DNA of 60,010 nucleotides, taken from positions 1-60,010 of the IMG/VR virus record IMGVR_UViG_3300012000_000018; one strand, given 5' to 3'. A program made the position numbers and the translations under genes. The notes under the pieces were generated by a model, which made no database searches, was not told the DNA's origin, and saw only the letters and a program-made list of their open reading frames with translations. The DNA is from a virus (lineage: Duplodnaviria > Caudoviricetes). This document shows, in pieces, positions 29,267 through 46,331 of the stretch; positions within the stretch are counted from its first letter, which is position 1, and each line of letters begins with the position of its first letter.

Positions 29267-29713
29267 ATGACCAACAAAAAGAAATACACACACAACCCAC
29301 TAACTAGCAGAGTTCTGCATAGTTACGAACCTATCTCAAAGAAAACTTCTGATGATGGTTACGAACTAATCATAGACAAAGACACACTTTGGCTACCAAC
29401 TTGTAAGACACAGGAAAAAGAAATCAAAGACAGCGACCTTATTCGCCACGAAGATTATGTCTATGCTCAAAAAATGTTAGAGCATAGGGCGTTGCGGACA
29501 AGAATTATTCTTGCCAAAATGGAAAGTGGTTTAGATGTTTCCATAGAAGAACTTCGCCACTTTGAGAAGTCTATGGAATACAAGAACTGCGAAGAGTGCC
29601 TAGTTCTTGACCTAACGCAAGACCTAGACCTCTTGGACTTTATGCCAGTAGAAGAAGTTGTTTATAAGTCTAAGGAAGACGAAGACACGGAAGAAGAAGA
29701 TTGGGACGACTAG
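29267..29713 (+). CDS. Hypothetical protein, leaderless, acidic tail
   Basis: TTGCAA-17-TAAGGT, then ATG. Confidence 0.65.
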   Translation: MTNKKKYTHNPLTSRVLHSYEPISKKTSDDGYELIIDKDTLWLPTCKTQEKEIKDSDLIRHEDYVYAQKMLEHRALRTRIILAKMESGLDVSIEELRHFEKSMEYKNCEECLVLDLTQDLDLLDFMPVEEVVYKSKEDEDTEEEDWDD

Positions 29714-29767
29714 GCTTGACTTTGGGGAAGAATAGTTTTATACTTAGGGTAAGAAAAGGGGAAACAA

Positions 29768-30943
29768 ATGCTAAAGCCTGACGAAACACTAACGCTACTC
29801 AACGACCTCAACCTGCGCCTAAAAGGGAACTTAGGTTATGTTCTAACTAATGTTCTTTCTTCTAAGTGTAGAGATGAAGAAGATGAAATTGTTAGACAGA
29901 TTTTTGATAGATACAAAACAGAAATTACAAAAAATCCTTTAGCCAATAAAGGTTCTTTATTTTTCTACGGACAAAAACTATTTTGCCTAAATAATGTGGC
30001 GCAGTATGGTTCTTCGGTTCATCTTGATACAGATAAACAGGCTTTATCTTTATCGGGAACTATGAGAATAGGTAAAACAAAACTTAGCCTTGCCGAAGGT
30101 ATGGTTCAAGAAATGCTAACTATTACTGAAAAGGCAGATGTCTTTTTAGTAAAAGATGAAATGACTGATGTTATTTCTTTTGCTTCTAATCAACTAGACG
30201 ACACAGATACTTTTGATTTCGACCTTGTTCCTAGTCCTCGCGGTTTTGCTTACTTCGAGAAGGGCGTAGAAACAAACGACATAGAAGGTAGCAAATACAT
30301 AATCCACGCCGTCCTTTGGGAAATGCACGATAATCAAATTGTTTATTACCTATTCAATAACTATGATGTAAAGGCTGACGACTCTATGCCTATGCTAGAA
30401 AGAACAGCAGAAGCAACAGGAAAGAGTGTTGCGGATTTTCGTAGAAATGTTGGTAAGTGGTTGCTATCTTCCGTAGAGAGCGCAGGACACGGAGAAAAGG
30501 TTGGCGGTAAAAAGCGACAAGAACAATTTGAGTTAGACTCTGATTATTGGAAAGAAAACTATCAACAAGAGTTTGTTGCTATGGATAACTTTCCACGATT
30601 TATGCACGCTTACTTCTTGATGATGTCGCAAACTATTGTGTCCTCTGAAAAGAAAACACCTCAACGCGGAATTAGAAAGTCTATGGAAAGAGCAAAACTT
30701 CCTAGCGAGTATGTTGTTGTTCAACTTCGCAAAACAGAATACACAACTAGCGACAAGGCTAATGAAGGTCGCTTTATAGATTGGTCGCACAGGTGGGTTG
30801 TGGGCGGTCATTGGCGTTGGCAACCTTACAAGGACGCTGAAAAGGGTTCTATCAAAAAGCGTATTTGGATTGCGCCGTATGTGAAGGGGCCGGACGACAA
30901 GCCTCTAGTAATGAAGGACAAAGTTTATGTCCTCGCAAAATAG
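29768..30943 (+). CDS. Conserved actinophage hypothetical protein
   Basis: C-terminal WSHRWVVGGHWRWQPY...IWIAPYVKGPDDKP. Confidence 0.75.
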   Translation: MLKPDETLTLLNDLNLRLKGNLGYVLTNVLSSKCRDEEDEIVRQIFDRYKTEITKNPLANKGSLFFYGQKLFCLNNVAQYGSSVHLDTDKQALSLSGTMRIGKTKLSLAEGMVQEMLTITEKADVFLVKDEMTDVISFASNQLDDTDTFDFDLVPSPRGFAYFEKGVETNDIEGSKYIIHAVLWEMHDNQIVYYLFNNYDVKADDSMPMLERTAEATGKSVADFRRNVGKWLLSSVESAGHGEKVGGKKRQEQFELDSDYWKENYQQEFVAMDNFPRFMHAYFLMMSQTIVSSEKKTPQRGIRKSMERAKLPSEYVVVQLRKTEYTTSDKANEGRFIDWSHRWVVGGHWRWQPYKDAEKGSIKKRIWIAPYVKGPDDKPLVMKDKVYVLAK

Positions 30944-31003
30944 GATTTGACTTTCCACTAGGGTAGTGGAATAATAAGTCAAAGAAAGAAAGGGAGAAAT
31001 AAA

Positions 31004-31804
31004 ATGGCTGAACACCATTTCATAGTGAAGTATGACGACGACCTAAACCATTGGTCGGTTGATGTTGAGAGTGAAGAAGTGCGGTTTCCTGATGGAACTA
31101 TTTGGGACGAGAAGACAGGCACTTGGACATACTCTTATCAAGGTAGTGAAAAGTTTTTCACTTTGCCTGATGGCTCAACCTCTGACGACCTTGACCAAAA
31201 GTTTGGCGAGTTTATAGACAGGTTGAATACCTGATGGACGAGATAACTCTTTCACGAACAGTAATGTTTGTTGGCGATTACTTTACGCTAATGACTACTA
31301 TTGTTCTTGATAACAACTTACGAAACGAAGGAGAGAGCGAACACGACTTTGCTATTCGTTGTGCCTCTATCTTCATAAACGAATACTATGGATTTGATGT
31401 TGCTAAGGCGTCTAACGACATTGGCGTTGTAGATGAAAATGGAGAGGAGATAGAAAATGACGACGACTAACTTAGACTTTGTTGTTTCACTTACAGACAA
31501 GATAGAGAGTGGAGAACTTGATAGCCACCTACAAATCTTGCGTCAAGCAGTTGATAAACGAATTGAGGAGAAGCGCGGTTCGCTAAAACTTTCTGACTTC
31601 CTAGTTGGCGACAAGGTTCGTATCAACGAGCGTTGTGGAACTAAATACCTTGTTGGCGAAACAGCACAAATTGTTGGCATTAGGCGAAGCAAGATTACTG
31701 TAATGCTAGACAACCCCACAGGGCGGTTCGCCCGAAAGTCGGGTAATGGCGAAACGATTTCTGCCGAAGTCGTTGTGCCCATAGCGATTGTGGATAAACT
31801 CTAA
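31004..31804 (+). CDS. Three small hypothetical proteins (31004-31234, 31234-31470, 31457-31804; the last is SH3-like)
   Basis: Coupled ORFs after a promoter; VGDKVRI in the third. Confidence 0.6.
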
Positions 31805-31855
31805 GTGCGGTTTGCGGAAGTAAAAAGTAAAAACTTCCGTGTAAAATAGAACCAC

Positions 31856-31955
31856 CTAGTGCGAGGCGTTCCCCTTTCTGCCTTGCCTAGATGAGAGCAG
31901 ACATACCCTTCTCTGCTCCGCCGACTTCCCCTTCCCCTGTCTTGTGGGAAGTCGG
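31856..31955 (+). ncRNA. Candidate three-hairpin small RNA with C-rich (anti-SD) loops
   Basis: Stems 31856-31890, 31895-31918 and 31921-31955; loops GTTCCCCTTTCT, CATACCCTTC and CTTCCCCTGTCTTGT; TAAAAT at 31842. Confidence 0.55.
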
Positions 31956-32024
31956 TGTGTATCTATTCTTGACTTTCTAAATTATTTTGTTATACTTGCT
32001 CTCACAAACAACTAAGGGGGACAA

Positions 32025-32273
32025 ATGGCAGTAAGCACTTACCAAGAAATTGCTAGACACTTCGGACACGAAATAAAAGTTGATGTTTGGGGCAACGAAG
32101 ACAACGCCTCTATCACTTGTGAAACTTGTTCTGAAATCTTGATTGACTTCGATAACAACAGCGAGATAGGCACTTGCGACGACTGCGAAACAACTTATGA
32201 TGTTGGCTCACAGATAGACCATTGCGCTGATTGCGGAACTTGCTGGGAGCATTGTAAGCGACACGCCGAGTAA
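32025..32273 (+). CDS. Cys-rich Zn-binding small protein
   Basis: CETC, CDDC, CADC, CWEHC. Confidence 0.65.
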   Translation: MAVSTYQEIARHFGHEIKVDVWGNEDNASITCETCSEILIDFDNNSEIGTCDDCETTYDVGSQIDHCADCGTCWEHCKRHAE

Positions 32274-32331
32274 GGTTCTTGACTTACCAAATCAAACGAG
32301 TAAAATTAGGGAAAAGAAAGGGGGAAACCAA

Positions 32332-32526
32332 ATGGCAAAATACAACGACATTACAGTCGTGCTAGGCAACAACGAAAACGCGGTTGCAATTATGGGACGA
32401 GTGGCTACGGCTCTACGCCGAGCAAGCGTTTCACAGGAAGAAATCAACCGCTTCCTTGACGAAAGTATGGCTAGCGATTACAGCAATGTAATCAACACGG
32501 CTAAGAAGTGGGTCGCTGTCGTCTAA
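32332..32526 (+). CDS. Conserved phage hypothetical protein
   Basis: NAVAIMGRVATALRRA...SDY. Confidence 0.7.
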   Translation: MAKYNDITVVLGNNENAVAIMGRVATALRRASVSQEEINRFLDESMASDYSNVINTAKKWVAVV

Positions 32527-32613
32527 CGGCAAACACTTAGGAAGCCCCTGTCCAACGGCAGGGGTTTCTTTTTGCCCAAATCACCCCTAAAAAATCCCCC
32601 TACTATTTTGGGT

Positions 32614-32859
32614 ATGGACATTATTGCTAAGGACTATCACGCTAACGGCTCTGGCGAGCCTTTCGTTGTTGCCATTGTAGATGACCCCTCTGACGGGGAT
32701 ACCAAACTTGTTATTATGTTTGGCGATACTGACTATACCGCCGTTCTTTCGCTAGACTATCTCATTAGAGATGAGGACATTTCTGCGAAATACAACGGGC
32801 ATCACGGCGACAAGTATGAACAACTTAGAGAAGAACTCTGGGACGGGTTCTGGAAGTAG
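32614..32859 (+). CDS. Hypothetical protein, probably leaderless
   Basis: TACTAT at 32601, ATG at 32614; YHANGSGEPFVV. Confidence 0.6.
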   Translation: MDIIAKDYHANGSGEPFVVAIVDDPSDGDTKLVIMFGDTDYTAVLSLDYLIRDEDISAKYNGHHGDKYEQLREELWDGFWK

Positions 32860-32897
32860 TAAAAAGTAAAAACTGAAGGGTAACGGAGAGAAAAAAG

Positions 32898-33473
32898 ATG
32901 ACGACTATTGCTGGCGTGCAAGGAGAGAACTGGGCTGTCGTCGGCTTTGACTCACGAGTAACCGAAGAAAACGAAAAGATTTATTCACTTCCAAAAGATA
33001 ACGGCAAGATGTTCAAAAATGGAAACTATCTTATTGGCGTGGCTGGAGATGTTAGAGCGATAAACCTCTTGTCCCACATATTCAAACCGCCCATTATCAA
33101 CCCATCAACCTATGGTGCAAGGTTAGATAAGTTTATGACCGCTTCCTTTATCCCCGAGATGAAGAAGTTGTTTGAGGAAAACTCATACTCTAAAGATGGC
33201 GACAACGATAGTAATGTGATGGTCGTAATCAACGGGACTATTTACGAAATAGGAAACGATTACTCTTGGGCTAGAGATGAGAGTGGGATTTACGCTATTG
33301 GTTCGGGTTCGGCTTATGCACTTGGTTCTTTACTTGGAACTATGGAAACCCGTAAAAGAACTTTATCTACGGCTAAGACTTTGGTTAGGCAAGCAATTAC
33401 TATCGCCACCAAACTTGACCCAAACTCTGCCCCACCGATTTACATAAATGTTCAGTATTACGGAGAGAAGTAA
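32898..33473 (+). CDS. Ntn-hydrolase protease (proteasome-beta/HslV-like)
   Basis: MTTIAG (catalytic Thr), DSRVT, AIGSGSAYALG. Confidence 0.85.
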   Translation: MTTIAGVQGENWAVVGFDSRVTEENEKIYSLPKDNGKMFKNGNYLIGVAGDVRAINLLSHIFKPPIINPSTYGARLDKFMTASFIPEMKKLFEENSYSKDGDNDSNVMVVINGTIYEIGNDYSWARDESGIYAIGSGSAYALGSLLGTMETRKRTLSTAKTLVRQAITIATKLDPNSAPPIYINVQYYGEK

Positions 33474-33928
33474 AAAGTAAAAACCTGCGCTCGCCGGCGT
33501 TCGCTGCGGGGGCAACTTCCAAATAACTTTGGCGTGTCTGCCTAGAAGACTTGACTTTTCTTGTCGTTCCGTTATACTTAGGGTATTCGGTAGGGGGAAA
33601 GTCGCTGGACACCTGAACGCCTATAACTTGCAAGGGGCGGAAACAATACGACTCCCCTACCGAACCTAATAAAGAAAAGGGAGAAAATATGAAAACTTAC
33701 GATGTAACTTTTCAAACTGCGGAATACACACTGCACACGCAAGGACAGGGAACAGATGAAGATAGCGCGGTTGATAACGCTAGCCAAAAGTTATTTCAAA
33801 CTCACGGCATTAACACTCTAAGTGCGAGTGTGATGGAAGTGGTAGAAATCACACAATAACGCTTGACTTTTGCTAGGGCAGGTATTATGCTTGCCCTAGC
33901 AAGACCAAACAGAAAAGGGGAAAATGAA

Positions 33929-34036
33929 ATGAAGATTTCAACAAAGGCAAAGTGTGTCGAGTGCTCGCGGGTATTCGATTTACTAGACGACAATGACGCT
34001 AATGAGTGGGCTTATGGCCACGACTGCGAGGCGTAA
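33929..34036 (+). CDS. 35-aa Zn-finger miniprotein
   Basis: Manual translation KCVECSRVFDLLDDNDANEWAYGHDCEA; promoter and RBS. Confidence 0.6.
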   Translation: MKISTKAKCVECSRVFDLLDDNDANEWAYGHDCEA

Positions 34037-34134
34037 GTAATGCTTTTCTTTACAGATGAACCTAATGAAGCATTAGATTACTTTGAAGAAATGGAACTTA
34101 TGGGGCTACTAGAAAAAGAAGAAGGGGAAGAAAA

Positions 34135-34727
34135 ATGAGCCTTGATAAAAGAGCGTTAGACGCTTGGATTACGCGGGAGCAAGAAATCTATGACGAGGAA
34201 GATGTTGTAGAAGAATATGTGCCGAAAGGTATTGTCGGACAATTCTCCGACTTTGAAGAAATGATGTTGTCGGGACTTGTAGATGAGTTTGCTTGCCACA
34301 AGGGTTGCGGTGAGTATTACACAATGTGCCGTTGCGAGTTTGGAAAGGAAAAGAAATGAGCGTTGATTTTACTTTGGTAGAAGAAAGAGTGAGCGAGGCT
34401 AAGGCTATCGCTTGGGATACTTGCCACAAGATTTACTTGCTAATGGACGATGAACAGGTTGCCCAAATGCGCGAGTATCGCTACGACAACTTAATAACTA
34501 GCGCGGACGCAACACCCGAAGAAATGCTAGAAACTCTAAAGGACTGGTATTACGAGTCTTGCTTCCTTAGATTTATTGACGCGGTAAGCACACACCCAAC
34601 AGACCCAAACTTAGGGTTTGAAACTCTAATCGGACAATTCGATGAAGAAGATGAGGACGAGGACGAGGAAGAAGACGACACGCCACAAGGCGCAACTATT
34701 ATTAACTTGACTTATAAGCCTAGATAG
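34135..34727 (+). CDS. Two small acidic hypothetical proteins (34135-34359, 34356-34727)
   Basis: ATGA-coupled ORFs; IAWDTCHKIY motif. Confidence 0.6.
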
Positions 34728-34762
34728 GTTTATACTAGGGTTAAGAAGAAAGGGGGAACACA

Positions 34763-34951
34763 ATGCGTGCTATCAAGAAGCAAGGCGAATACAGACTCTA
34801 TCGCGTAGAGAATCACCTTGAACTTTGGTATGGCGTGTTCGGTGGGGAGTATTCCTATCGTGCAGGTTATGTCGCAGACGCGGAAAACTTTGGATACGCA
34901 ATAGATGTTGCGGAAGAAGAAATGCGTTGTCTTAGGGCAGAAGCCATTTAG
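34763..34951 (+). CDS. Hypothetical protein
   Basis: Own promoter, RBS and terminator. Confidence 0.6.
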   Translation: MRAIKKQGEYRLYRVENHLELWYGVFGGEYSYRAGYVADAENFGYAIDVAEEEMRCLRAEAI

Positions 34952-35196
34952 CCTTAGAGAGAAGCCCCACCGAAAGGTGGGGTTTTTCTTTTGCGGTGTG
35001 AAAGTAAAAAGTAAAAACTTATACGCGGACTTACCCCTAGCCTTGTCCAACTTCCAAACAACTTGCGGACGCCTATTGGCTAAAACCCTTAGCAAAATAA
35101 ATGTTAAGTTTTTCGGGAACTTTTTATGTGATGTATCTCACACCTGCGGTTTATTAAATACTTGACTTACAAATAGAAAATAGTTATACTTCTGCA

Positions 35197-35638
35197 ATGA
35201 CCCAAACAAAAAACCTAAAAAACCCAACAACAAACAAAACCTATACTTACAAGGGATTCGTCCCACTTTCACGCCTTTCATATAACGCTTGCTCTATTGC
35301 GGAGCACAGCCTTTGCCTTTCTTCTCCACAACAACTTGCCGATGTATTCGGCTTCGACTTTGCGAAGGCAACTTGTTGCCTTTGCTCTTGCCACTTCACG
35401 GAAGGGGGTGAGTGATATGGAAGACGAGAGAACTTATTGCGAGCGTTGTTATGAAAACTTTGATGATGATGGTTTTGATTATCGTTTTGACTATCCCGTG
35501 TGTTTGGCGTGTGCGGAAAAGTATTGCGTCAATTGCCATAAAGGGGACAGCGAACCTGCAACCCACCAACTAATTCCACAAGGTCCAAAGTGTTGTGAGT
35601 GTGCGGAGTGTCCCGACTTGACTTGCGGTAGCAAGTAA
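35197..35638 (+). CDS. Two Cys-rich small proteins (35197-35415 leaderless; 35417-35638)
   Basis: TATACT at 35185 then ATG; multiple CxxC motifs. Confidence 0.55.
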
Positions 35639-35675
35639 GATACACTTACACCAACAACAAAGAGAAAGGGAGTAT

Positions 35676-36050
35676 ATGCAAAAACAAAAGGCAGTCGCTA
35701 TCAGCACAGATGGCGTAAAGTCCGTTGTTGAGTTTGACTTCAAAAACTCATACAACACACTAAGCAACGCAGTCGGTGGGTATATCGAGTGTGTTGGATT
35801 AGATGGCGCAGATATGTGGTGCAACGAGAATGGTATTGCGGAAGGCTTGCCACTCAATATGGTTGCTTCGGCTATCTACTATGAAGCGTTCAACGCAAGT
35901 AATCCGATTCTCGGTAATGTAATCATTACTGGCGGTGCGGATGAAGAAGGGGAAACACTCGGACTAACAGATGAGCAAGTGGCTCACTGGCTTGCATACG
36001 ACAAGCATATTATTCCGACAGCCTACCTACTGGGCGGGCTATACAACTAA
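35676..36050 (+). CDS. DUF3846 family protein
   Basis: LSNAVGGYIECV...MWCNENG...LPLNMVAS...ILGNVIITG. Confidence 0.8.
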   Translation: MQKQKAVAISTDGVKSVVEFDFKNSYNTLSNAVGGYIECVGLDGADMWCNENGIAEGLPLNMVASAIYYEAFNASNPILGNVIITGGADEEGETLGLTDEQVAHWLAYDKHIIPTAYLLGGLYN

Positions 36051-36566
36051 TCTTCCCCCCGAAGGAGAGGGTGCGGTTCCCCCCGCACTCTCTCTTTTTT
36101 TGCGGTAACAGTAAAAAGTAAAAACTTTCTTCAGCAACAGCAACCAAGTGCATTCGACTTCATAATAACTTTCGTGTCTGCCCTTGACTTATCTATAGTC
36201 AACTATTATACTTAGGCTACATTAGAGAAAGGGGGAAGTATGCAACACTCTAATTGCGACCTTGATACCTGCCAAGACTGCCGTATCAAGTTCAATATGA
36301 AAGAGATAGATTGGGAGACTTGGTCTTTCACGGATATCGAAGATATCTTTGAAGACGCCGACCCGATGAAGTATCTCTAAAGGTTGAAGCGGAAGCCCTC
36401 GCAATTATGCGGGGGCTTTTGCATCTCCGTATTAAAGTAAAAAGTAAAAACTTTTGTTCAGTCCGGACTGGTCCGGCGCGACACTTCCAAATAACTTTCT
36501 CGACTTGACTTGACTTTCTTCGTGATAGGTTGTTATACTTTGACTACCTAAAGAAAGGGGATTCAG

Positions 36567-37040
36567 GTGGATACACTTGAAACACAAGTAGTTACTCTCG
36601 AAAGTAACTGCAATTGCACTAATGAGGATGAAAGTCCTTCCGAAGAATGCTTCGGTTGTTACCAAGACTCTCTAGATAACTTAGATTATCTAAAGAAAGA
36701 ATGGACTAAGAGAGTCGGCAAAGACTTCTCTAAAGTAATCTCATACGGAAAAGGAATGGGATGGCGAAAGACAAGTGGGTCGGCAGAGTTTGATTACGAT
36801 AATCTTCATCGCGCCGTAACCTTGAATGGCGACTTCACAATTACTTTCACACTTGAAGGTAATGAATTGACTGCGGAGCGTTCATCGCACGATGAGCCTG
36901 TGGGTGGAGCAAGATTCCGATTCGTGCCTTACTACGAAACTGACTGCGCCGACTGCGGAGAAACTATTGGTTCAGAGGGTCAATTACTAATTCGTTGCGA
37001 TGACTGCCTACTAACTTTCATAAAGGAAAGTGGCAAGTAG
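36567..37040 (+). CDS. Hypothetical Zn-binding protein
   Basis: 157 aa; SHDEP motif, CxxC pairs. Confidence 0.65.
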   Translation: MDTLETQVVTLESNCNCTNEDESPSEECFGCYQDSLDNLDYLKKEWTKRVGKDFSKVISYGKGMGWRKTSGSAEFDYDNLHRAVTLNGDFTITFTLEGNELTAERSSHDEPVGGARFRFVPYYETDCADCGETIGSEGQLLIRCDDCLLTFIKESGK

Positions 37041-37443
37041 ATACAAATAACTTCCCTAAAAAGTCCCCTGCCGAGAGGTGGGGGACTTTTTATTGCGCTC
37101 GCGGGCAGGTTGTTGGGAAGTGGAGGCTCGGTGGGAAGTTTTTACTTTTTACACGCTCCGGCGTTCGCCTCGCCTCGACTTCCAAAAGTTATCCACAGGT
37201 TGTAATCGTGTGATGTAACTCACACCACGACACGCCGAGTATAAGTTGCGTTATGTTTGCCAAAACGCTACAATTCTCCTACAACAACTAAACAGGGTAG
37301 AAAAGTGAGGAACTAGGCGAAACCCCGCCACTAGGTAAAACTAACAACTTGACTTATCAAGAAAAAAGTTTTATACTTACACCAACAACTAAATAACAAC
37401 TAAATACAGAACAAAACACAACGACAACAAAAGGGGAAACAAA

Positions 37444-37707
37444 ATGTCAGTATCAACACTTTCAGCAACAAAGTGGGTTCTTGTAAAGGCTTCAGACGGA
37501 ACTCGCGGTCAGAATGGCAAGAAAAAGATTTACGAGATTACCCTAGAGGGTAATAAGGTCGTAATGGTTTGGGGAATGGCAGAGAAGCCACAACGCCAAA
37601 GCAAGACAATGTTTTTCGGAAGCACCCAAGAGGCTCGCTGGTTTGCTCTTGATAAGAAAAACGCAAAGGTTTGGGATAGAGGCTACACACTAGCCTACGA
37701 AGCCTAA
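37444..37707 (+). CDS. WGR-domain-like protein
   Basis: KKIYEITL..NKVVMVWG...EARWFA..KKNAK..RGY. Confidence 0.7.
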   Translation: MSVSTLSATKWVLVKASDGTRGQNGKKKIYEITLEGNKVVMVWGMAEKPQRQSKTMFFGSTQEARWFALDKKNAKVWDRGYTLAYEA

Positions 37708-37793
37708 GACACGCCGAGGTTGCCCTACTTGCTAAATTGTAGCGAGTAGGGTAATCTTTGCTCAACAACAAAGTTTCTAAAGGGGGAACTAAA

Positions 37794-38159
37794 ATGGAAG
37801 CAGAAGTTATTTACGAAGCAGGACAAGAAACTGCTAAGGGTCTAACTATTTACAATGATGATGAAACTACTTTGATGATTGATGATGTTCTTTATCAAGG
37901 TGGAGAGGGATTTACTGCCCTTGATGTTTTTATCGCTGATGTATTAGACCACCAAAATAACTACGGAATAAGCGGACAGATTTACAAGATTGAGGATTGG
38001 TCGGGAACTCTTTATGTTTATGCTCGCCAAGATAACTGCGATTGTATGTATGACTACAAAGGTGATGAAATAAAAGATACTTGCGATTGCGAGGGTTCTT
38101 ACACAATGTTCGACACCAAGTCCGTCAATGTAATCACAATGATAAAGAGGTGGCGATAA
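37794..38159 (+). CDS. Hypothetical protein
   Basis: MEAEVIYE after GGGGG RBS. Confidence 0.6.
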   Translation: MEAEVIYEAGQETAKGLTIYNDDETTLMIDDVLYQGGEGFTALDVFIADVLDHQNNYGISGQIYKIEDWSGTLYVYARQDNCDCMYDYKGDEIKDTCDCEGSYTMFDTKSVNVITMIKRWR

Positions 38160-38410
38160 TGCGGAAAGTAATGATTTATGTGGCTTGCTGGAAGTGCGGT
38201 AAGTCAATGCGAATAAACCAAGATGATTATTACAATGGATTGGTTTGCGGTAAGTGCTAAGCCCGAAAGGGTTTAGGGCTGGTAGTAAAAAGTAAAAACT
38301 TTCTATGCGCCCCCTAAACGACACGCTCTCTCCCCGAACCCCCTGATTTGACTTTCGGGGGGAGAGAGTGTTATACTTGGCTCAACAGGAAAAGAAAGGG
38401 GAAATACAAA

Positions 38411-38746
38411 ATGTATGGACTTCCTGATAGTGCGGTTCTAGGAACTGCCAAGCGTGTAAAAGGCGCGGTCAAGAAAAGCGCAAAAAAGGCAAAGGCAAAG
38501 GCAAAAGCAAAGTCAAAGTCTGAAACGCCTTATCGCTCTCCACGCTCAATTACTATCGTAGTTGAGGAAACACCTAAGCCTTATCGTTCAGAGGGGCAAG
38601 GTTTTGTTGAGGCTATGATTTATTTGGTAATGCCTATGATTTGGTTGGCAGAGCGTTATAACAAGAAGCGTGCTGAAAGCCAACCAAGAACAGAGCCTAA
38701 GCCAGTAATTTGGCGTGAAAAGAAAAGCGACACGCCAAAAGAATAA
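38411..38746 (+). CDS. Basic hypothetical protein
   Basis: MYGLPDS...KAKAKAKAK. Confidence 0.6.
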   Translation: MYGLPDSAVLGTAKRVKGAVKKSAKKAKAKAKAKSKSETPYRSPRSITIVVEETPKPYRSEGQGFVEAMIYLVMPMIWLAERYNKKRAESQPRTEPKPVIWREKKSDTPKE

Positions 38747-38841
38747 AAGGCAGGTAAGTTGCCTAAATAGGCAAAGTGTTGTATGCTTATCGTGTTGGTC
38801 AAGGGGACTAACACAAAGACAAAATGAAAAGGGGTAATGAA

Positions 38842-39027
38842 ATGAAAATGCTAATGGAAGCGAAATATATTCGCAGACGCCGTGTTGCTTTTGCGCTCGC
38901 CGTTATCGCTAGTGCGGTTTTGGTTTGGGCTGTTTATCAAGCAATGGGACATATTTGGTGGGTAGGCGACCACTATTGTTTTGATGATGTTGTTTCTTGC
39001 TACTTTCCTGAAGAGGGGGCAAAGTAA
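38842..39027 (+). CDS. Small membrane protein
   Basis: YIRRRRVAFALAVIA TM segment. Confidence 0.6.
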   Translation: MKMLMEAKYIRRRRVAFALAVIASAVLVWAVYQAMGHIWWVGDHYCFDDVVSCYFPEEGAK

Positions 39028-39342
39028 TGTCTAACACAAAGAAGTGCGCTAACCCAGTATGTAAAAGCACAGAACTTGTTTATTCGGGAGTAGATGCGTT
39101 TATGTTGGGAGTGCCAACAGAAACTTATTGCTACACCTGCGCTAATGCTATTGCTAGTTTTGAGGTGAAAATCTGATGACTGACAATACTGAACTAACAC
39201 CAGAGTTGGCAGATAAAATTCTAAAACTTGCGTTTGCCACAGATGAGCAAATGAAAGAGTGGGAAGCCCTACCAACACGGGAAGCAAGAAAGGCTTTTTG
39301 GGATACTCTCCCGCTACCGAAACTAAAGAGAAAGGGGAACTA

Positions 39343-39492
39343 ATGTATTTAGATACAGGAACACTTATAGGCTTGACTATCGCGCTCGCGGGTTCTTGCG
39401 CGGTTATGATTATCTCAATAATGTCCCACCGAAATCTCACACGAGAAAACTATCGTCTGAAGAAACTACTACGCGAAAGGAGTAAAAAGTAA
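39343..39492 (+). CDS. Small membrane protein
   Basis: MYLDTGTLIGLTIALAG; AAAGGGG RBS. Confidence 0.6.
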   Translation: MYLDTGTLIGLTIALAGSCAVMIISIMSHRNLTRENYRLKKLLRERSKK

Positions 39493-39661
39493 AAATGGAA
39501 ACGACACAAATCGTATCTGACGCTAATTGCAGTTTCACTTGCCAGTTTGAGTGGATTGAAGTATCTTCTAATTTCTTTAGCGTATCTGTCTATACCCCAG
39601 CACTAATTGTTGGACTGCTTGGTTATGGTATCTATCGAGTTATCAAAAAGAGGCGCGGATA

Positions 39662-40141
39662 ATGACTAAGCCAACTTGGGATAAGTTTGAAGAAGCAACT
39701 CCAGTTGTAAATGGGAAAAAGGTAGAACTTGAACCTAACCAAACAATTTGGAAGAACAGGTTTTATGTTGTCGTCAAGACAGTTTTAGAACCTGAACTTG
39801 GAGAAGCCAGTGGTCTTCACCTTTCAATTCGCCATAACGAACGAAAGGCTATTAGAGATTGGAGACACTTCCAGCGTATCAAGAACGAACTTGCGGGTGC
39901 TGAAAGAGAAGCCGTAGAAATCTTCCCACCTGAAAGCCAACTTGTTGATACTTCTAACCAGTATCACCTTTGGGTCTTACCTGAAGGCACAACTTCTTTC
40001 TTTACTTGGAACGAAGGAAGGCACGTTACAAGCAACGCACAAGACCCACAGACTGCTCAATGGTTGAGGGATAAAGGTTTAGACCCTGCGGTTATTCGCA
40101 ACGCGGTGCAACGACCTTTAGAGGAGGAAGCGTCTGCGTGA
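39662..40141 (+). CDS. Conserved phage hypothetical protein
   Basis: HLSIR...DWRHFQRIKNELAG.E.EAVEIFPPESQLVDTSNQYHLW. Confidence 0.75.
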   Translation: MTKPTWDKFEEATPVVNGKKVELEPNQTIWKNRFYVVVKTVLEPELGEASGLHLSIRHNERKAIRDWRHFQRIKNELAGAEREAVEIFPPESQLVDTSNQYHLWVLPEGTTSFFTWNEGRHVTSNAQDPQTAQWLRDKGLDPAVIRNAVQRPLEEEASA

Positions 40142-40344
40142 GAGTAGCAAAAAGTAAAAAGTTAGAAGCCAGCGCGAGTGCGTTGTATCGTGGTGGTCTT
40201 TCGATAGATGATGTGGCTAGAGAACTTGCCGTGTCCTATCGTTGCGCTCGCAAAGCAATTCAAGGTGGTGGGGCTGAAATTAGAAACCCCTCTGCTAGAA
40301 CTAAAGGACGCACAAGTCCTAAAGGAAAGAAGGGAAACAAATGA
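40138..40344 (+). CDS. Small HTH DNA-binding protein
   Basis: LYRGGLSIDDVARELAVSYRCAR. Confidence 0.7.
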   Translation: MRVAKSKKLEASASALYRGGLSIDDVARELAVSYRCARKAIQGGGAEIRNPSARTKGRTSPKGKKGNK

Positions 40345-40612
40345 ACAACTTGAATATAGTTTGGACTGCTGTCGGAACTGTCTTGTTTGGGTTGGCGTCT
40401 TTCGTGGCGTCTTGGCAAGGTAGTGTGGCGTGGTCTATTAGTTTGGGCTTGTCTGCGGTTGCATCTGCAACCCTAGCAAGTCGAGAGAAGTAGGCTAAAC
40501 CCCCTTTTCCCTACTTCTCCAAAAGTTAGGCTGTCGGTGGCTTCCCCCACTTACAGCCTTTCTTTTCGTCTGCTTGCTTGACTTTTCTTTTATTGTTTGT
40601 TATGATTAGCCT

Positions 40613-40864
40613 ATGCAAAATCCAAACTGCACTTTCGAAGTTGAAATCGAGGACGACTATGGTCGTTTTCGTATTCTCTTGCCTTATGCCGAGGCAACTA
40701 TTCGCGCCCAAAAGGCGTCTGAAGCGGGCGAACTGTCCGACTTCTATCACGCTTGCCTGTGTGATTTTGAGTCTATGACTTTTCCTCACACCTGCCCTTG
40801 CAACTGCGAGTGGTTTGATAAAGGTGCGGAGCCTGACCCCGCTGTTCCCCCTCTTTATATTTAG
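40613..40864 (+). CDS. Leaderless Cys-rich hypothetical protein
   Basis: TTGACT-17-TATGAT, then ATG. Confidence 0.6.
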   Translation: MQNPNCTFEVEIEDDYGRFRILLPYAEATIRAQKASEAGELSDFYHACLCDFESMTFPHTCPCNCEWFDKGAEPDPAVPPLYI

Positions 40865-40865
40865 G

Positions 40866-41203
40866 AGAAGCCCCGCCTTGTGCGGGGTTTCTTTTTGCGC
40901 TGTGGAGTTTTTACTTTTTATGCGTGAGTCCAAGCCTCGCTGTGGGCAACTTCTAAACAACTTATGCTTGACTTACTGCTTGACGACTGATATGTTATGT
41001 CTAACAAATTGAAAGGGGGCTTCCAATGTCTGTAAATATTGATAACAATGGTCTTGACTATGACCCTTGGGCTGAAGATGATGACGACACTCTTGCGGTT
41101 GAAGATGTCGTTGTTGTTGAAGACGCAGGTTTTGAGATGTGGTTAGGTCTTGAATAAATAACTTTGCCACGAAGAAGCCCCGCCTTGTGCGGGGTTTCTT
41201 TTT
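40866..41203 (+). repeat. Identical 31-bp terminator repeat at 40866 and 41173
   Basis: AGAAGCCCCGCCTTGTGCGGGGTTTCTTTTT present twice. Confidence 0.9.
41026..41157 (+). CDS. 43-aa highly acidic peptide
   Basis: Manual translation MSVNIDNNGLDYDPWAEDDDDTLAVEDVVVVEDAGFEMWLGLE; own promoter, RBS and terminator. Confidence 0.6.
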   Translation: MSVNIDNNGLDYDPWAEDDDDTLAVEDVVVVEDAGFEMWLGLE

Positions 41204-41358
41204 TGTGCGGGTAAGTTTTTACTTTTTATGCCTCTCCCCAAACCCTCGCGCTCGCCAGGTTCCACAACTTCCAAACAACTTCTCTCTGATTCCTCTCTAA
41301 CTGCCCTTGACTTCTACAATGGAGTGTTGTATGCTATGTCTTGAAAGGGGGGTATCAA

Positions 41359-41775
41359 ATGGATACTCAAGTTGCAACAAGATTGCCTTCTAAATCCGAA
41401 TGGGCGGAACTTTATGAGGCACTTTCTAAACTTCCTAAATCTAAATACGCTATCCCAACTTCCGAGATTATTTCGGATTTCTTAGCGGATAATATTCACG
41501 GCGACCTACTCTTTGTAGAGGTTCGTGAATACAAAAAGACCCCATACCTACGCAAGTTGTTGGGTTCTATGCCTTCTTTTACCCGTGTAAAGCCAAATGC
41601 GCTCGATACGCTTGCGTTTGTGCGTATTTTAACTACTGACCCTCACAAATACGCTCGTATCTTCGGTGAGCACTATCGTTGCTGTGCCAAGTGCGGTGCT
41701 GAACTCACTGATGAGCGTAGTCGTGAGTTATCTCTTGGACCAGAGTGCCGAAAGGCGTTTGGATACACCAAATAA
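41359..41775 (+). CDS. DUF6011-like Zn-finger protein
   Basis: CAKCGAELTDERSRELSLGPEC. Confidence 0.75.
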   Translation: MDTQVATRLPSKSEWAELYEALSKLPKSKYAIPTSEIISDFLADNIHGDLLFVEVREYKKTPYLRKLLGSMPSFTRVKPNALDTLAFVRILTTDPHKYARIFGEHYRCCAKCGAELTDERSRELSLGPECRKAFGYTK

Positions 41776-41965
41776 CTCTATGATGGAAGGTCGTTCCCGC
41801 CCCTGTGCGGGGGCGACTTTCCTGACTTTAGTGTGCTAAGGTGGTCTAGTAGAAATGATGCAAGACGCATTAGAAAGTAGGTCGCAACACCTATCTCCCC
41901 AGAGCGGGTGATACGGGTGGGCTAGTCCAGCCACCTTGTCCTGTCCCCTAACAAAGGAATAATCA

Positions 41966-42562
41966 ATGCAGAAACTCGAAAGCAAGACTATTGAACAAAT
42001 AGTAAGCGTGGCTATCTCTGTCGTGCTTCTATCGGTATTTTCTACTTTTGTTCAAAGTTCCAGAGCCGAGCAACAACCTATGCCAGTATCTATCGCTTCG
42101 GTAGAGGCTGAAATAGCAAAGAAGAATGAAGAAATCCGCTTGCTAGAACTCAAGAAGTTCTCCGAGCAAAAGACAACCCTGACTGATGAAGACCTAGTCC
42201 GACTGCTTCACGCCGTTGGTTTCAAGGGTAAAGCCTTGAGAACTGCTTGGGCTGTCGTCAAGAAGGAAAGTAATGGTCGCCCCCTAGCCTTCAATGGCAA
42301 TAGGAAGACAGGCGATTCGTCATACGGCATATTCCAAATCAATATGATTGGTGGGCTTGGCGTTACACGCCGAGAGAAGTTTGACCTCAATAGCAATGTT
42401 GAACTCTTTGACCCAGTAGTTAATGCTCAAGTCGCCTACCATATGAGCGGTGGCGGAGATGATTGGACTGCTTGGAAAATCTCAGGAACGCTAACAAATA
42501 GTGATGAGATTAGGTTCAAGGAGTGGTATGCCAAGTTCCCTGAAGGAGTTGTAAATGAGTGA
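41966..42562 (+). CDS. Secreted lysozyme-like lytic transglycosylase
   Basis: N-terminal TM/signal; KKESNG, DSSYGIFQINM, LFDPVVNA, WTAW. Confidence 0.85.
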   Translation: MQKLESKTIEQIVSVAISVVLLSVFSTFVQSSRAEQQPMPVSIASVEAEIAKKNEEIRLLELKKFSEQKTTLTDEDLVRLLHAVGFKGKALRTAWAVVKKESNGRPLAFNGNRKTGDSSYGIFQINMIGGLGVTRREKFDLNSNVELFDPVVNAQVAYHMSGGGDDWTAWKISGTLTNSDEIRFKEWYAKFPEGVVNE

Positions 42563-42968
42563 TGAAGACCTTTCCAGTATCTTTACCCCTGCGGTAGAGG
42601 CTGAGCCAGTAGTCGAGGCTGTGGCTGTGGTTGAAGAACCAAAGCCCGCTCCCGCTGTGGCTGTTGAACCTGAACCAGTAGTAAAAAGTAAAAAGTCCCC
42701 CGCTGTCGTTTCAACAACTGCGGGAGTTGTTTCGTTGTCTGCGCTTGGAAACAAGTTTGCTCACAACTCTGCGTCTGTGGCTTTAGTTCAAGAACAACTT
42801 ATTGCTCTTGGATTTGATGACGCGGGTTTTGATAATCGCGGACACCTAAGCGAAGGAACTAAGAAAGCCCTTGCTGACTTTTGTGGTTGTTCTACCCAAG
42901 AACTCATCGTAGATGAGAAACTTATTACTAAGTTATTCAAGAACACTGCGGTAGAAGTCGTAGCCTAA
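42555..42968 (+). CDS. Peptidoglycan-binding-domain-like protein
   Basis: SVALVQEQLIALGF...GHLSEGTKKALADF. Confidence 0.6.
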   Translation: MSDEDLSSIFTPAVEAEPVVEAVAVVEEPKPAPAVAVEPEPVVKSKKSPAVVSTTAGVVSLSALGNKFAHNSASVALVQEQLIALGFDDAGFDNRGHLSEGTKKALADFCGCSTQELIVDEKLITKLFKNTAVEVVA

Positions 42969-43074
42969 ACACCTTTTCAATAAATCAACGCTCGGTTGGT
43001 CATCTAAAATTGACTAGCCGAGCGTTGTTTTTACTTTTTACACGCTCTGTGCAGGACAAGGAAGGACGGCACAA

Positions 43075-43368
43075 ATGGCAAAATCAAAAGGAGAGGTTGA
43101 AGTAAGTCGGGACGACAAGACTATTGAGAAAGCAAAAATGCTCATTGGTCGTGTTATCGCTACTTTCGCTGCCTCGGGACTATCCGTAGTTGGAGCAGGT
43201 TCTTTGTTTGGTATTGAAGTATGGAAATCTATTGCCCTTGCGGGTGGTTTGGGTGTCGCTACTGTCGTAGAGGCTTTGTCCCGTGCCTACCTTGCTGACG
43301 GAAAATTGACTACATCTGAAATCAACGAAGCCTTTGCGCTTGTAGATAAGCGTAAGTCCGCCGAATAG
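43075..43368 (+). CDS. Holin-like membrane protein
   Basis: Two TM segments; DGKLTTSEINEAF. Confidence 0.6.
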   Translation: MAKSKGEVEVSRDDKTIEKAKMLIGRVIATFAASGLSVVGAGSLFGIEVWKSIALAGGLGVATVVEALSRAYLADGKLTTSEINEAFALVDKRKSAE

Positions 43369-43413
43369 TTCATAAATAAGAAGCCCCCTAGATTATTCGT
43401 CTAGGGGGTTTTC

Positions 43414-43596
43414 TTATGCTACTAGGCAGAGCCTTCGTTTGGAGTGAGCGTGAATCCATACTGTAACCCACCCGCGCTCGCGGTCATACACCTCTGCACC
43501 TTGTGTAAGTTGTTGGCACTTTGGACAAGTCCCGATGAACTCGTGGTCGTCTAACTCTTTCACTCTTTGTCCTTTTTCATTTCGATATAGTGGCAA
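43414..43596 (-). CDS. Small Zn-binding protein
   Basis: CPKC...H...C. Confidence 0.45.
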   Translation of the reverse strand: MPLYRNEKGQRVKELDDHEFIGTCPKCQQLTQGAEVYDRERGWVTVWIHAHSKRRLCLVA

Positions 43597-43671
43597 GGCT
43601 TACATAGCCCCTCTCCACCCCCGCCGAACTTAGGATTGAACCAAGTCTGACATTTGACACATTGTTGCGGT

Positions 43672-44283
43672 TTAGCCATTTCGGTTCTTCTCTAGGATTG
43701 GTTGGAAGCACTTACTTTTTCCTGTTGTTGTTCGGTAGCCGTATCGTGTCAAGCGGAATTGGATTGCACCAATAGTTACACCCAATATCTTTGCAAGACG
43801 ATATACGGAAATGCCTTGCGTTGTTATTGCTTGATTGAGAAGGTAGGTGTATTCATCTGCCTCTGCTCGATACATCTTGCCGTGTCCTCTTACCTGTTGG
43901 GCAAGTGGTTTGAGTTCTAATAGTCTGTCCAGCATTTCTTTTGGAAGTTCGGGATAAACTTTAGAATACTTTGTTTCTCGCGGTGGCTTTGGAATAGGTA
44001 AATCACCAATGAGAGAAGTGTCGCTCATTGTTTGTTGAGCAAGTTGTCTTACTCTTTCCCGTGAAATATCTACTGCCCTTGCAATCGCGGAATCTGTCCA
44101 GCCAGCCTCGCCCAATGCAATTATGTATTGGTTGCGTTGCTTTATATCGCTAATACCTTTGAAGATATCCAATACATCTTGCGGAAGTTCTTGCTTTCGC
44201 TTGATGATTTTTCCTTCTCCACTCGCCACAATTTTGTATGTAACGCGTTTAGGTTTAGTCGTTGTCGTTATCTCTTTCGTCAT
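43672..44283 (-). CDS. Dual HTH DNA-binding protein, paralog 2
   Basis: WTDSAIARAVDISRERVRQL; SVYRLAKILGVTIGAIQFRLTRYGY; aligns with 2141-2722 by eye. Confidence 0.8.
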   Translation of the reverse strand: MTKEITTTTKPKRVTYKIVASGEGKIIKRKQELPQDVLDIFKGISDIKQRNQYIIALGEAGWTDSAIARAVDISRERVRQLAQQTMSDTSLIGDLPIPKPPRETKYSKVYPELPKEMLDRLLELKPLAQQVRGHGKMYRAEADEYTYLLNQAITTQGISVYRLAKILGVTIGAIQFRLTRYGYRTTTGKSKCFQPILEKNRNG

Positions 44284-44350
44284 TTCTTCCTTTCGTAGTT
44301 TGTCTTATAGCAAGCATAACCCATAGGATTACTGATTGCAAGTTGAGAGG

Positions 44351-44644
44351 CTACCCCTTGCGGAGTGCCTCTTTTACCAGCGTTACTGCCTCGAAGTCAT
44401 TACCGCCAATGTTGTATTGGAATACCTCTGTGAGTGCAGGTCTTCCCATTTCGTAACGCTTCCAGTCATAGATTGTCGCTACTGTGCCGTTCTCGAAAAC
44501 AATAACCCACTCGACTGTTACTTTGTCGCCCTCTGCGAAGTATTCAGGTTCTCCGAAGGTTTCAATAAGTTGAGCAAGTGTTGAAGTTACATAGCCTTTG
44601 AGTGAAGTCCCGTAGGCTTGCTCAGGGTCTAATGTGAATTGCAT
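44351..44644 (-). CDS. Conserved phage hypothetical protein
   Basis: GTSLKGYV...FGEP...DKVTVEW...ATIYDWK...YNIGG. Confidence 0.7.
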   Translation of the reverse strand: MQFTLDPEQAYGTSLKGYVTSTLAQLIETFGEPEYFAEGDKVTVEWVIVFENGTVATIYDWKRYEMGRPALTEVFQYNIGGNDFEAVTLVKEALRKG

Positions 44645-44849
44645 TTTGTTTCCTTTCGTAGTTGGTAGATATAGTATATAAAACTTATTGCAACAATGCA
44701 AGCCCATTTCTCTCCACCCCCTGTGCGGTGTCTAAAAGTTGTTTGGAAGTTGCCAGCACCTAGCCACTAAGTTTTTACTTTTTACCCTAAATCAAAAAAT
44801 GAAATGCAAAAAAGAAACCCCCGATTTCTCGGGGGCTTCTTCATAACTT

Positions 44850-45074
44850 TTAGAAGAAGAGTTCTTCTACCGCTGAAGAGGCTAGAAAGCGTAACTTTAG
44901 ATTGAGGATACGGATTCCATATTCCTTTGCGAAGTTTTCTGCTTCTGCCTTTGTGTCTGCCTTGAATTGGTAAGCCTTGTTGCCTTCATAGACTGCCATA
45001 AAATGCTTCTTGCCGTTTGAGTTTGTGCCAGTCATTACTGCAATTAGTTCTGCGTCTGTTATTAGTTTAGACAT
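44850..45074 (-). CDS. Hypothetical protein (single-gene cassette)
   Basis: Promoter, AAAGGG RBS and terminator. Confidence 0.65.
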   Translation of the reverse strand: MSKLITDAELIAVMTGTNSNGKKHFMAVYEGNKAYQFKADTKAEAENFAKEYGIRILNLKLRFLASSAVEELFF

Positions 45075-45299
45075 TTGCTTCCCTTTGTTAGTTGCCTTGC
45101 CCCCTGTGGCTTGGCTTCTTGGTCTAAGTGTATCCGGTTAGGTGAGTAGTTGCAAGACCAAATGAGGAAATTGTTTAAATGTGCGGGTGTGAGTTGCATC
45201 ACATTTTTTGGCGCTCGCAAGTTTTTACTTTTTATATAGTTTTAATTTTTCCAGCAAAAAAGAAAACCCCCTCTTTCGAGGGGGCTTCCTTCCCAGACT

Positions 45300-45683: not shown

Positions 45684-45839
45684 CTCCCCCTAGTATCCAT
45701 CGCCCCTTGCGATTTCCACTACCTAAATAATAAGGGTTGGCTACGGATAACGCAAGTTCATTTGGCAAAAAAGGTTAGAAATGTCGTGTGATTTACACCA
45801 CACATTTGCACCCCTGCGGAAGTTGTTGAGAAGTGAAAG

Positions 45840-45872
45840 TTATCCACAGGTTTATCCACAGGCTGTGGATAA
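45840..45872. promoter_or_regulatory. Cluster of three perfect DnaA boxes
   Basis: TTATCCACA at 45840 and 45852, TGTGGATAA at 45864; single copies also at 37189 and 31789. Confidence 0.8.
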
Positions 45873-46183: not shown

Positions 46184-46331
46184 TTTGTTTCCCCCTTTCT
46201 TTGTTAGCCTAAGCATAGAATACTTTTACGGGTAATGCAACTCTATTTGGATTTTGTGCCACATAATTCGTGTGAGTTGTACCACATAGAAAAACCCCCC
46301 ACATTTCTGCGGGGGGCTTCTCTTTAGTTCT

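Follow-up and report, generated by a model that had tools for sequence, protein, structure and literature searches.

A conserved three-hairpin RNA family with C-rich loops in probable freshwater actinophages, a candidate regulator of translation

The locus and the three-hairpin element

The stretch of DNA analysed here, positions 1 to 60,010 of IMG/VR record IMGVR_UViG_3300012000_000018 (hereafter the window; 60,010 bases, completeness estimate 45%, G+C ~43%), contains an element of three adjacent hairpins located between a gene for a 115-amino-acid (aa) protein and the promoter of the next gene (Table 1). As described below, the element is a genuine structured non-coding RNA family encoded on the plus strand, and its single-stranded, C-rich loops resemble the 3′ tail of 16S ribosomal RNA. 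An original prediction, made from the letters of the window, had placed a phage small RNA (sRNA) here, with loops complementary to the ribosome-binding sites (RBS) of the phage itself. The window is treated as part of a probable large lytic-type phage of freshwater Actinobacteria because of its G+C, because its portal protein shares 74% identity with that of DSL-LC01, an Actinomycetia phage of lake water, and 58-62% with the portal proteins of large Microbacterium phages, and because the annotation of DSL-LC01 contains a WhiB-family regulator. A blastn search of positions 31000-33500 against 50,697 phage records gave zero matches.

Table 1. Features of the locus and RBS copies complementary to loop 1, in window coordinates
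Feature	Position	Strand	Details
115-aa gene	31457..31804	+	usual, non-obligatory neighbour of the RNA
Weak Box A hairpin	31814..31840	+	between the upstream gene stop and the -10-like hexamer; seen in the fold
-10-like hexamer TAAAAT	31842..31847	+	TAnnnT position conserved
Whole RNA, covariance-model match	31850..31962	+	R1 146.8 bits, R2 119.3 bits
Predicted transcript	~31853-31856 to ~31958-31966	+	roughly 105-112 nt
Hairpin 1	31856-31890	+	loop 31869-31878 TTCCCCTTTC, contains CCCCTTTC
Hairpin 2	31895-31918	+	loop 31902-31911 CATACCCTTC, contains ATACCCTT
Hairpin 3	31919-31957	+	loop 31932-31943 TTCCCCTGTCTT, C-rich; base C-G, G-U, C-G; possible terminator
Sigma-70-type promoter TTGACT-N16-TATACT	31969..31996	+	next gene 32025-32273; 10/12 consensus positions
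AGAAAGGGG RBS, candidate target	32315..32323	+	gene 32332-32526; TTGACT..TAAAAT promoter 53 nt before ATG
AGAAAGGGG RBS	34747..34755	+	before ATG 34763
AGAAAGGGG RBS	36226..36234	+	before ATG 36240
AGAAAGGGG RBS	36552..36560	+	before GTG 36567
AGAAAGGGG RBS	38393..38401	+	before ATG 38411
AGAAAGGGG RBS	39329..39337	+	before ATG 39343
AGAAAGGGG RBS	46192..46200	-	before ATG 46183

Folding of positions 31800-31985 gave a free energy of -63.1 kcal/mol, compared with -38.5 +/- 3.7 kcal/mol for 200 shuffled sequences (z -6.65), none of which was as stable; the three consecutive plus-strand hairpins of the original prediction are thus borne out. Hairpin 3 stacks on hairpin 2, that is, its first base adjoins the last pair of hairpin 2. 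The opposite strand folds almost equally well (z -5.14), and fold energy therefore cannot assign the strand. The sole open reading frame (ORF) across the element is a 29-aa frame (31891-31980), whose ATG is absent in several relatives and which is disrupted by indels; a small-protein reading was rejected for this reason, and the claim that the hairpins hold no ORF stands in that the lone frame is not conserved. Three further candidates were also rejected, namely a retron (no reverse transcriptase adjoins the element), ToxI-like repeats (the three hairpins are not repeats of each other) and a tRNA-like structure (ARAGORN calls only two tRNAs, at 6.4-7.3 kb).

Distribution and conservation of the family

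Relatives of the upstream 115-aa gene were found at 55 loci (12 viral and 43 metagenome loci, several of them being one record present in two collections). Alignment of nine sequences with MAFFT and RNAalifold misaligned hairpins 1 and 2 and recovered hairpin 3 alone, and a model with the structure given was used instead: covariance model R1 combined the window with two near-identical copies under a three-hairpin structure set by hand, and R2 was derived from the matches of R1. R2 placed the element on the plus strand, immediately 3′ of the 115-aa gene, at 36 of the 55 loci as well as in the window, and three weak matches elsewhere (E 0.006-0.03) were taken as chance. The window and two related phages (G001 and G002) have one copy each. 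Independently of the protein, a pattern scan of viral contigs returned 20 stretches, of which 10 pass the model and 5 lie on new contigs. Of the 19 loci without the element, six break off less than 100 nucleotides (nt) past the gene, one of them with the first part of the element still visible. Another seven have a structured spacer of another kind, with an inverted copy of Box A (a repeated word treated below), and the last six have a single strong hairpin followed immediately by an HslV-like gene. A spacer of ~150 nt with an inverted Box A, and with a TTGACT promoter at its end, occupies the RNA slot at L043, L046, L048, L054, L057, L058 and L060 and may represent a second RNA family.

All family members sit on viral or phage-like metagenome contigs. 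No model match was found in DSL-LC01 (129 kb), where the homologue of the 115-aa gene passes straight to HslV, nor in two sets of Actinomycetia genomes (0 of 4 and 0 of 151 sampled, with a limited sample and filters); among the at least 120 stretches listed by a pattern scan of bacterial and archaeal genomes, none passes the model.

The 34 matches comprise 23 distinct rows, in which 93.3% of 668 base-pair cells hold standard pairs, compared with 70.2% in shuffles, none of 500 being as high, and 35-53% when pairing partners are slid. Changes on both sides were observed for 28 of the 31 base pairs (12 of 12 in hairpin 1, 6 of 7 in hairpin 2 and 10 of 12 in hairpin 3), so that the covariation across related phages proposed as a check of the original prediction is present. 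The invariant pairs are the closing G-C of hairpin 2 and a C-G and a G-U at the base of hairpin 3, the latter being G-U in 23 of 23 rows. This alignment was fitted to the model, and folding of single rows provides a check that is free of it: three hairpins whose loops carry the C-rich motifs are predicted for 25 of 26 distinct rows, and the one that departs is truncated. The loops are thus both conserved and single-stranded in the predicted folds. G-U cells (68) exceed A-C cells (9), and the plus strand is therefore the folded strand.

The search against Rfam suggested with the original prediction assigned the element to no family. At gathering scores, cmscan of the whole window found two tRNAs only; a scan of 31700-32100 at E up to 10 gave a single chance-level long non-coding RNA match, and nine diverse relatives scanned at E up to 1 gave nothing at the element. 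A literature search did not find such an RNA described in actinophages.

Loop sequences and their complements in the phage

The stems vary freely and the loops are the most conserved part of the RNA. Nearly every one of the 23 distinct rows has a loop 1 of the consensus YCCCC(C)UUUC(U), reading CCCCUUUC; the variants are CCCCUUC, CCCCUUUU and ACCCUUUC. Loop 2 has the consensus AYACCCUU with its ACCCUU core kept, and one clade has the longer form ACCCUUUCU, which resembles loop 1. Loop 3 reads YCCUGUCU in most rows and is replaced in several clades. C-runs of 3-7 are present and conserved in all three loops. In two Actinomycetia genomes the 3′ end of the 16S gene reads ...GGATCACCTCCTTT followed by CTAAGG (short form ...CACCTCCTTT followed by CT), and loop 1 of the window, TCCCCTTTCT, equals this tail with one letter changed, a C for the U in the core; the canonical 16S core was found in loop 1 of no row. 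As judged from these letters, the loops are anti-Shine-Dalgarno (anti-SD)-like.

The perfect 9-mer complement of loop 1, AGAAAGGGG, occurs 8 times in the window compared with 0.52 expected. One copy is the RNA gene itself, and each of the other seven lies 8-13 nt before a start codon (Table 1). The shorter GAAAGGGG occurs 10 times (1.9 expected), again with one occurrence in the RNA gene itself. RBS forms differ by region: GGAG-type sites belong to the structural genes and those at 14-16 kb, GAAAGGA/GAAAGGG to 19-31 kb, and (A)GAAAGGGG(G) to 32-46 kb. For many of the (A)GAAAGGGG(G) sites, a TTGAC-type promoter lies 52-63 nt upstream and the leader is short and CA-rich. The stretch from 29700 to 46600, as well as G001-G004, shows repeated cassettes made up of a TTGAC[TA]-N16/17-TAnnnT promoter located 52-63 nt from the ATG, a short CA-rich leader, (A)GAAAGGGG(G) and small function-unassigned genes, an arrangement that recalls the promoter/stem-loop cassettes in the plastic regions of T4-type phages. 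The (A)GAAAGGGG(G) genes may form an early-gene cassette, as suggested by promoter shape and gene size.

The predicted duplex energy of loop 1 was -14.2 kcal/mol for 14 start regions with TTGAC promoters compared with -9.0 kcal/mol for the other 100 (p 7.5e-5), and the preference was also significant relative to the 16S tail (p 0.0016). AAAGGGG was present in 8 of 127 called start regions of the window, 5 of 176 in G001, 16 of 135 in G002, 10 of 109 in G003 and 10 of 63 in G004, compared with 0 of 171 in the RNA-less DSL-LC01. The share of GGGG-type sites was 5.7-30% in the five RNA-bearing phages versus 3.5% in DSL-LC01, a comparison weakened in that its RNA-less side is one genome of higher G+C.

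Of the three loops claimed to be complementary to RBS forms of the phage, loop 1 has kept this property, with its seven AGAAAGGGG start sites, whereas the complements of loops 2 and 3 are unenriched. That is, loop 1, together with C-runs generally, alone mirrors a common ribosome-binding form. In particular, GACAGGG, which had been named as an RBS form of the cassette region, occurs in 1 of 127 start regions of the window and in no start region of four relatives, and the claim is overstated.

Flanking signals and the upstream neighbour

Upstream sequence is available for 28 distinct family members. In 25 of them the spacing between a TAnnnT hexamer (TAAAAT, TAAAGT, TAAACT or TAGAAT) and hairpin 1 is 8-11 nt, and in the remaining three it is 21 nt; in the window TAAAAT ends 8 nt before the first paired base, as had been noted. 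The hexamer was observed in three contexts: behind a Box A spacer; within the last codons of the 115-aa gene (GAT AAA ATn); or, in L099, L102 and L110, as TGTTAAAGT following unrelated sequence. L099 and L110 are without the 115-aa gene and their upstream ORFs of at least 50 aa lie on the opposite strand (the lone exception, a 59-aa TTG frame in L110, was taken as spurious), and TGTTAAAGT is retained in both. The -10-like element of the original prediction is thus conserved at a fixed spacing, also where no co-directional gene lies upstream. Since the distance of the hexamer is kept in three different upstream contexts, the arrangement argues for the RNA being a small transcription unit of its own, probably with a weak or factor-dependent promoter.

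Neither Pfam nor PHROG gave a match for the 115-aa protein. Its AlphaFold model (predicted local distance difference test score, pLDDT, 89.2) consists of two N-terminal helices, forming a helical hairpin, and a five-strand KOW/SH3-like barrel that is nearest to Spt5 KOW6-7 (Z 10.2), the KOW domain of NusG (Z ~8) and ribosomal eL21. On the basis of this predicted fold, the protein might serve the RNA as an RNA- or factor-binding partner. Its gene adjoins the element in the window and at 36 of the 55 loci found by means of the gene.

On the 3′ side, a TTGAC[AT]-N16/17-TAnnnT promoter starts 9-10 nt past a conserved G(G/A)TGT in 21 of the 28 distinct members, and in the 7 without a following promoter the tails after hairpin 3 are more U-rich. 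Hairpin 3, a possible terminator, has a 12-pair GC-rich stem and, in some members, a U-rich tail; its loop has 12-15 nt, and a consensus scan gave no call. These flanks bear on a cis-acting role in transcription, in which the element would be a processive antiterminator of the put kind, or would act with the KOW-like protein, for read-through of downstream terminator-like hairpins. The RNA would begin nearly at its own promoter, is made of stacked hairpins and heads a run of co-directional cassettes with terminator-like hairpins; moreover, the neighbouring gene encodes a NusG/Spt5-type KOW barrel, and in the 7 of 28 members with no following promoter the next gene would be read from upstream. 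Such a role is unlikely, however, since 21 of 28 members have a near-consensus promoter at 9-10 nt past the RNA, which makes the downstream genes independent of RNA-carrying transcripts, and since the seven promoterless members have the most U-rich tails, suggesting better termination rather than read-through. In addition, the neighbour protein has two helices in place of an NGN-like domain, and the anti-SD likeness of the loops would become a coincidence.

The element could also be a plain transcript-end module, that is, a terminator or 3′-end protector of the upstream mRNA which insulates the next promoter and has no role in trans. The stop codon of the 115-aa gene coincides with the start of the RNA, or lies no more than ~15 nt from it, in nine of the 23 distinct rows (L052, L040, L065, L055, L039, L024, L061, L023 and L074), the next -35 follows at the fixed spacing of 9-10 nt, other cassette gaps in the window hold hairpins between Box A and promoter, and the more distant relatives L067-L073 have a single strong hairpin in the same slot. 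We consider this quite unlikely, as a terminator needs neither three hairpins nor constant loops on changing stems, L099 and L110 have no co-directional upstream gene to terminate, and the distance to the -10-like hexamer is constant in the three contexts. A structure of single-stranded DNA, e.g. a priming or replication signal with the hairpins formed in DNA, would have a precedent, given that some single-strand initiation signals use hairpins with conserved loops and that G-T pairs are possible in DNA. It is nevertheless very improbable, because same-strand transcription signals flank the element at fixed distances, G-U pairs are frequent and one is invariant, there is no skew change here and no replication genes adjoin.

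Four metatranscriptome runs, all from one study, contain the stretch, with word shares of 0.91, 0.36, 0.17 and 0.15. Among the assembled contigs, one (513 nt) covers 31807-32319 and another ends at 31832, with breaks in repeated Box A/RBS words and a depth of ~8-10 on both sides; in such contigs neither ends nor strand nor level are readable, and DNA carry-over is possible. In run X1, a 6.2-kb contig of a related phage has a word depth of ~137-fold, compared with ~8-10 for the window phage, and past the stop codon of its 115-aa gene it resembles the L039/L065 form of the RNA.

Box A and other features of the window

The core of Box A, AAAAAGTAAAA, has 28 exact copies in the window compared with 0.3 expected. 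The copies are confined to 16414-45899 (e.g. 31822-31832, 35006-35016, 36439-36449) and their orientation mostly follows the gene strand. Box A is often preceded by a terminator-like hairpin and followed, at 35-60 nt, by a TTGACT-type promoter, and it is sometimes within an ORF or touches a start codon (27022, 39484); relatives carry it too. As originally described, the copy at 31822-31832 lies in the loop of a GGAAGT/ACTTCC stem (31816-31839), and in the nearest relatives this stem is changed on both sides, to CGAAGT/ACTTCG. Box A is located upstream of the RNA in only some relatives. Box A as the -35 element of the RNA promoter was rejected, given that the spacing between it and the hexamer is not constant (5 to 15 nt) and that two of the three contexts lack it. 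Box A may be a regulator site, part of a middle promoter or a recombination word. Two identical 21-nt words, each with an inverted Box A inside, are found at 37138-37158 and 43027-43047, and two identical 31-nt terminator-like hairpins at 40866-40896 and 41173-41203.

Downstream of the RNA and its promoter, and before an HslV-like peptidase gene (32898-33473), there is usually a conserved gene of ~80 aa (M-x-I-[IV]-A-K-D-Y-H...; 32614-32859, plus strand, in the window), with homologues such as L110 8101-8343. No Shine-Dalgarno (SD) sequence is present in its leader, which is rich in pyrimidines (CTCTTTTTGG). Elsewhere on the minus strand, positions 3-704 contain 9-nt periodic repeats that encode collagen-like Gly-X-Y triplets; this frame runs past the window end and probably encodes a fibre protein. 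Two tRNA genes, for Gly(TCC) and Asn(GTT), are also on the minus strand, at 6360-6431 and 7270-7343.

Comparison with known RNAs

The 6C sRNA of Actinobacteria (B11 in mycobacteria) is a chromosomal RNA named from six conserved cytosines in its stem-loops. Its C-rich hairpin loops pair directly with G-rich mRNA regions, with no Hfq or ProQ (PMC6486639). The element analysed here shares with 6C the probable host phylum and the format of a small RNA with C-runs in hairpin loops. It differs in being phage-borne, in its three hairpins, in its other loop motifs and in the lack of an Rfam match; in addition, 6C is a chromosomal gene whereas the present RNA was found on viral or phage-like contigs only, with 0 of 151 sampled Actinomycetia genomes. 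The 6C sRNA has two stem-loops and is presumably Rfam family RF01066.

The cuckoo RNAs (CcsR1-4/RSs0680, and alpha-proteobacterial three-hairpin forms) consist, according to the parts of PMC4615179 that deal with them, of 2-4 adjacent variable-stem hairpins, each with an anti-SD-like loop that carries CCUCCUCCC, and are often co-transcribed with a small upstream gene, whose product CcaF1 binds RNA as stated in part of PMC8034643. The present RNA is alike in having three adjacent hairpins without a multiloop, a pattern shown by the consensus and by 25 of 26 single folds, and in adjoining a small gene, that for the 115-aa protein, in the window and at the 36 of 55 loci found via that gene, though not in L099 and L110. 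Its three loops differ from each other, however, CCUCCUCCC occurs in no row, Rfam gives no match, and cuckoo hosts are Alphaproteobacteria whereas this RNA is carried by phages treated as actinophages. The cuckoo analogy of the original prediction therefore applies to the hairpin-array architecture and the anti-SD-like loops, and not to the loop motif or to any Rfam relationship.

C-runs in loops also cover RBS in the case of RsaE/RoxS, sRNAs of Firmicutes with C-rich regions. Such C-rich sRNAs of Firmicutes are chromosomal and have another architecture, and the present RNA has neither sequence relation to them nor an Rfam match. The exposed C-runs of the UCCC loops of RNAIII likewise cover RBS, as cited within PMC4615179. 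Among phages, the c4 antisense RNA of P1/P7 has loops that pair around the RBS of the phage's own mRNA and block its translation, as reported in a portion of PMC12197685; c4 has a single target (ant) and serves temperate-phage immunity, whereas the target proposed here would be a generic SD form of many genes. The T4 endoribonuclease RegB turns off early mRNAs by attack on the SD sequence GGAG, as outlined in a section of PMC1702504. RegB is a protein nuclease and non-homologous; the shut-off proposed here would share its logic.

One feature of trans-acting anti-SD RNAs, a single-stranded complement of an RBS, is found in loop 1 (seven start sites compared with 0.52 expected overall) and not in loops 2 and 3. 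Compared through published descriptions and Rfam models, the element is best described as a 6C-like or cuckoo-like RNA in probable actinophages, from a family that is unmatched in Rfam and undescribed in the literature searched.

Proposed mode of action

The reading that we favour, with about even confidence, is that the RNA is a phage-encoded, 6C/cuckoo-like regulator of translation whose C-rich loops pair in trans with G-rich RBS regions. What we infer is a discrete transcript that would pair with mRNA leaders and repress their translation. That is, host RNA polymerase would start ~7 nt past the -10-only promoter TAAAAT, transcribe through the three adjacent hairpins, and stop at, or the product would be trimmed back to, the GC-rich hairpin 3, yielding the predicted transcript of Table 1, a unit that butts against the strong promoter of the next gene. 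The stems would serve only to keep the shape, and the single-stranded loops YCCCCUUUCU, AYACCCUU and YCCUGUCU would do the work, by pairing with G-rich SD regions, foremost the (A)GAAAGGGG(G) of small promoter-proximal (probably early) phage genes, and perhaps with host mRNAs too. Pairing would keep the 30S subunit off the leaders, and the RNA would act without Hfq, like the actinobacterial 6C sRNA.

A number of observations weigh against this reading. The complement of loop 2 occurs 48 times compared with 43.2 expected, and AGACAGGG, the test word for loop 3, 47 times compared with 39.4 when one mismatch is allowed; AAGGGTA is present in 3 of 127 start regions of the window and in none of the four relatives, these regions coming from heuristic gene calls with some spurious frames among them, and GACAGGG is as rare as reported above. 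Loops 2 and 3 are thus conserved although their complements are unenriched at starts. When the whole RNA was cofolded with 47-nt leaders, the mean was -4.1 kcal/mol for both the 10 early-type leaders and the 10 controls, and the strongest values came from two control leaders. Across the five phages no signal of loop-target co-evolution and no self-versus-other specificity was detected: in G002, 2.2 per 100 start regions hold the 7-mer complement of its own loop 1 variant (CCCCTTC), compared with 15.6 per 100 for that of the window's loop 1. G001 bears the RNA and yet has only 10 GGGG-type sites in 176 start regions. Any C/U-rich loop will, in addition, match SD-like sequence to some extent. 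As regards the transcript, no -35 element was found before the hexamer, coding could explain the hexamer in those relatives where it lies within the 115-aa gene, and the U-tract 3′ of hairpin 3 is not conserved.

Some of these points would suit a protein decoy or scaffold, in which the loops are recognised by a protein, either a host factor for the 16S tail or for C-rich RNA or the KOW-like phage neighbour, that is titrated or recruited. Such a role would account for three conserved loops of which loop 1 alone has a complement enriched at starts, for the near identity of loop 1 to the 16S tail, and for cofolding that gave the proposed targets no advantage, and the KOW/SH3-like barrel of the upstream neighbour is a fold that often binds RNA or ribosomal or termination factors. 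SH3-like barrels are common, though, and a shared fold proves no function; L099 and L110 carry the RNA without an adjacent KOW-like gene; and the precedents with such loops (6C, cuckoo and RsaE-type RNAs) work by base pairing. We therefore regard a decoy as rather unlikely and retain regulation of translation by pairing in trans as the working interpretation.

A more specific form of regulation by pairing, which we put forward tentatively and hold to be doubtful, is a private SD code combined with a timer made of RNA only. The 16S tail of the host would read the early (A)GAAAGGGG(G) leaders only via G-U wobble, and the loop of the small RNA would correspond to the 16S tail with C replacing the wobble U, so that the RNA could outcompete ribosomes on the phage's own early mRNAs while sparing late and host messages with GGAG-type sites. 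The job of T4 RegB would then be done by an RNA that mimics the docking tail of the ribosome, and the KOW-like neighbour might assist as a phage-made RNA partner in an Hfq-less phylum.

Implications

Regulatory RNAs of lytic phages are few, and for phages of Actinobacteria none was described in the literature searched. The present family is supported by covariation, widespread in lake viromes and easily testable, and R2 can serve as a model to annotate this so far unrecognised gene in phage genomes from metagenomes. If the RNA does mask a phage-specific RBS form, it would show that early genes can be timed by RNA alone and that pairing through C-rich loops can work without a chaperone, and it would explain the upkeep of the unusual GGGG-type SD sequence in these phages.

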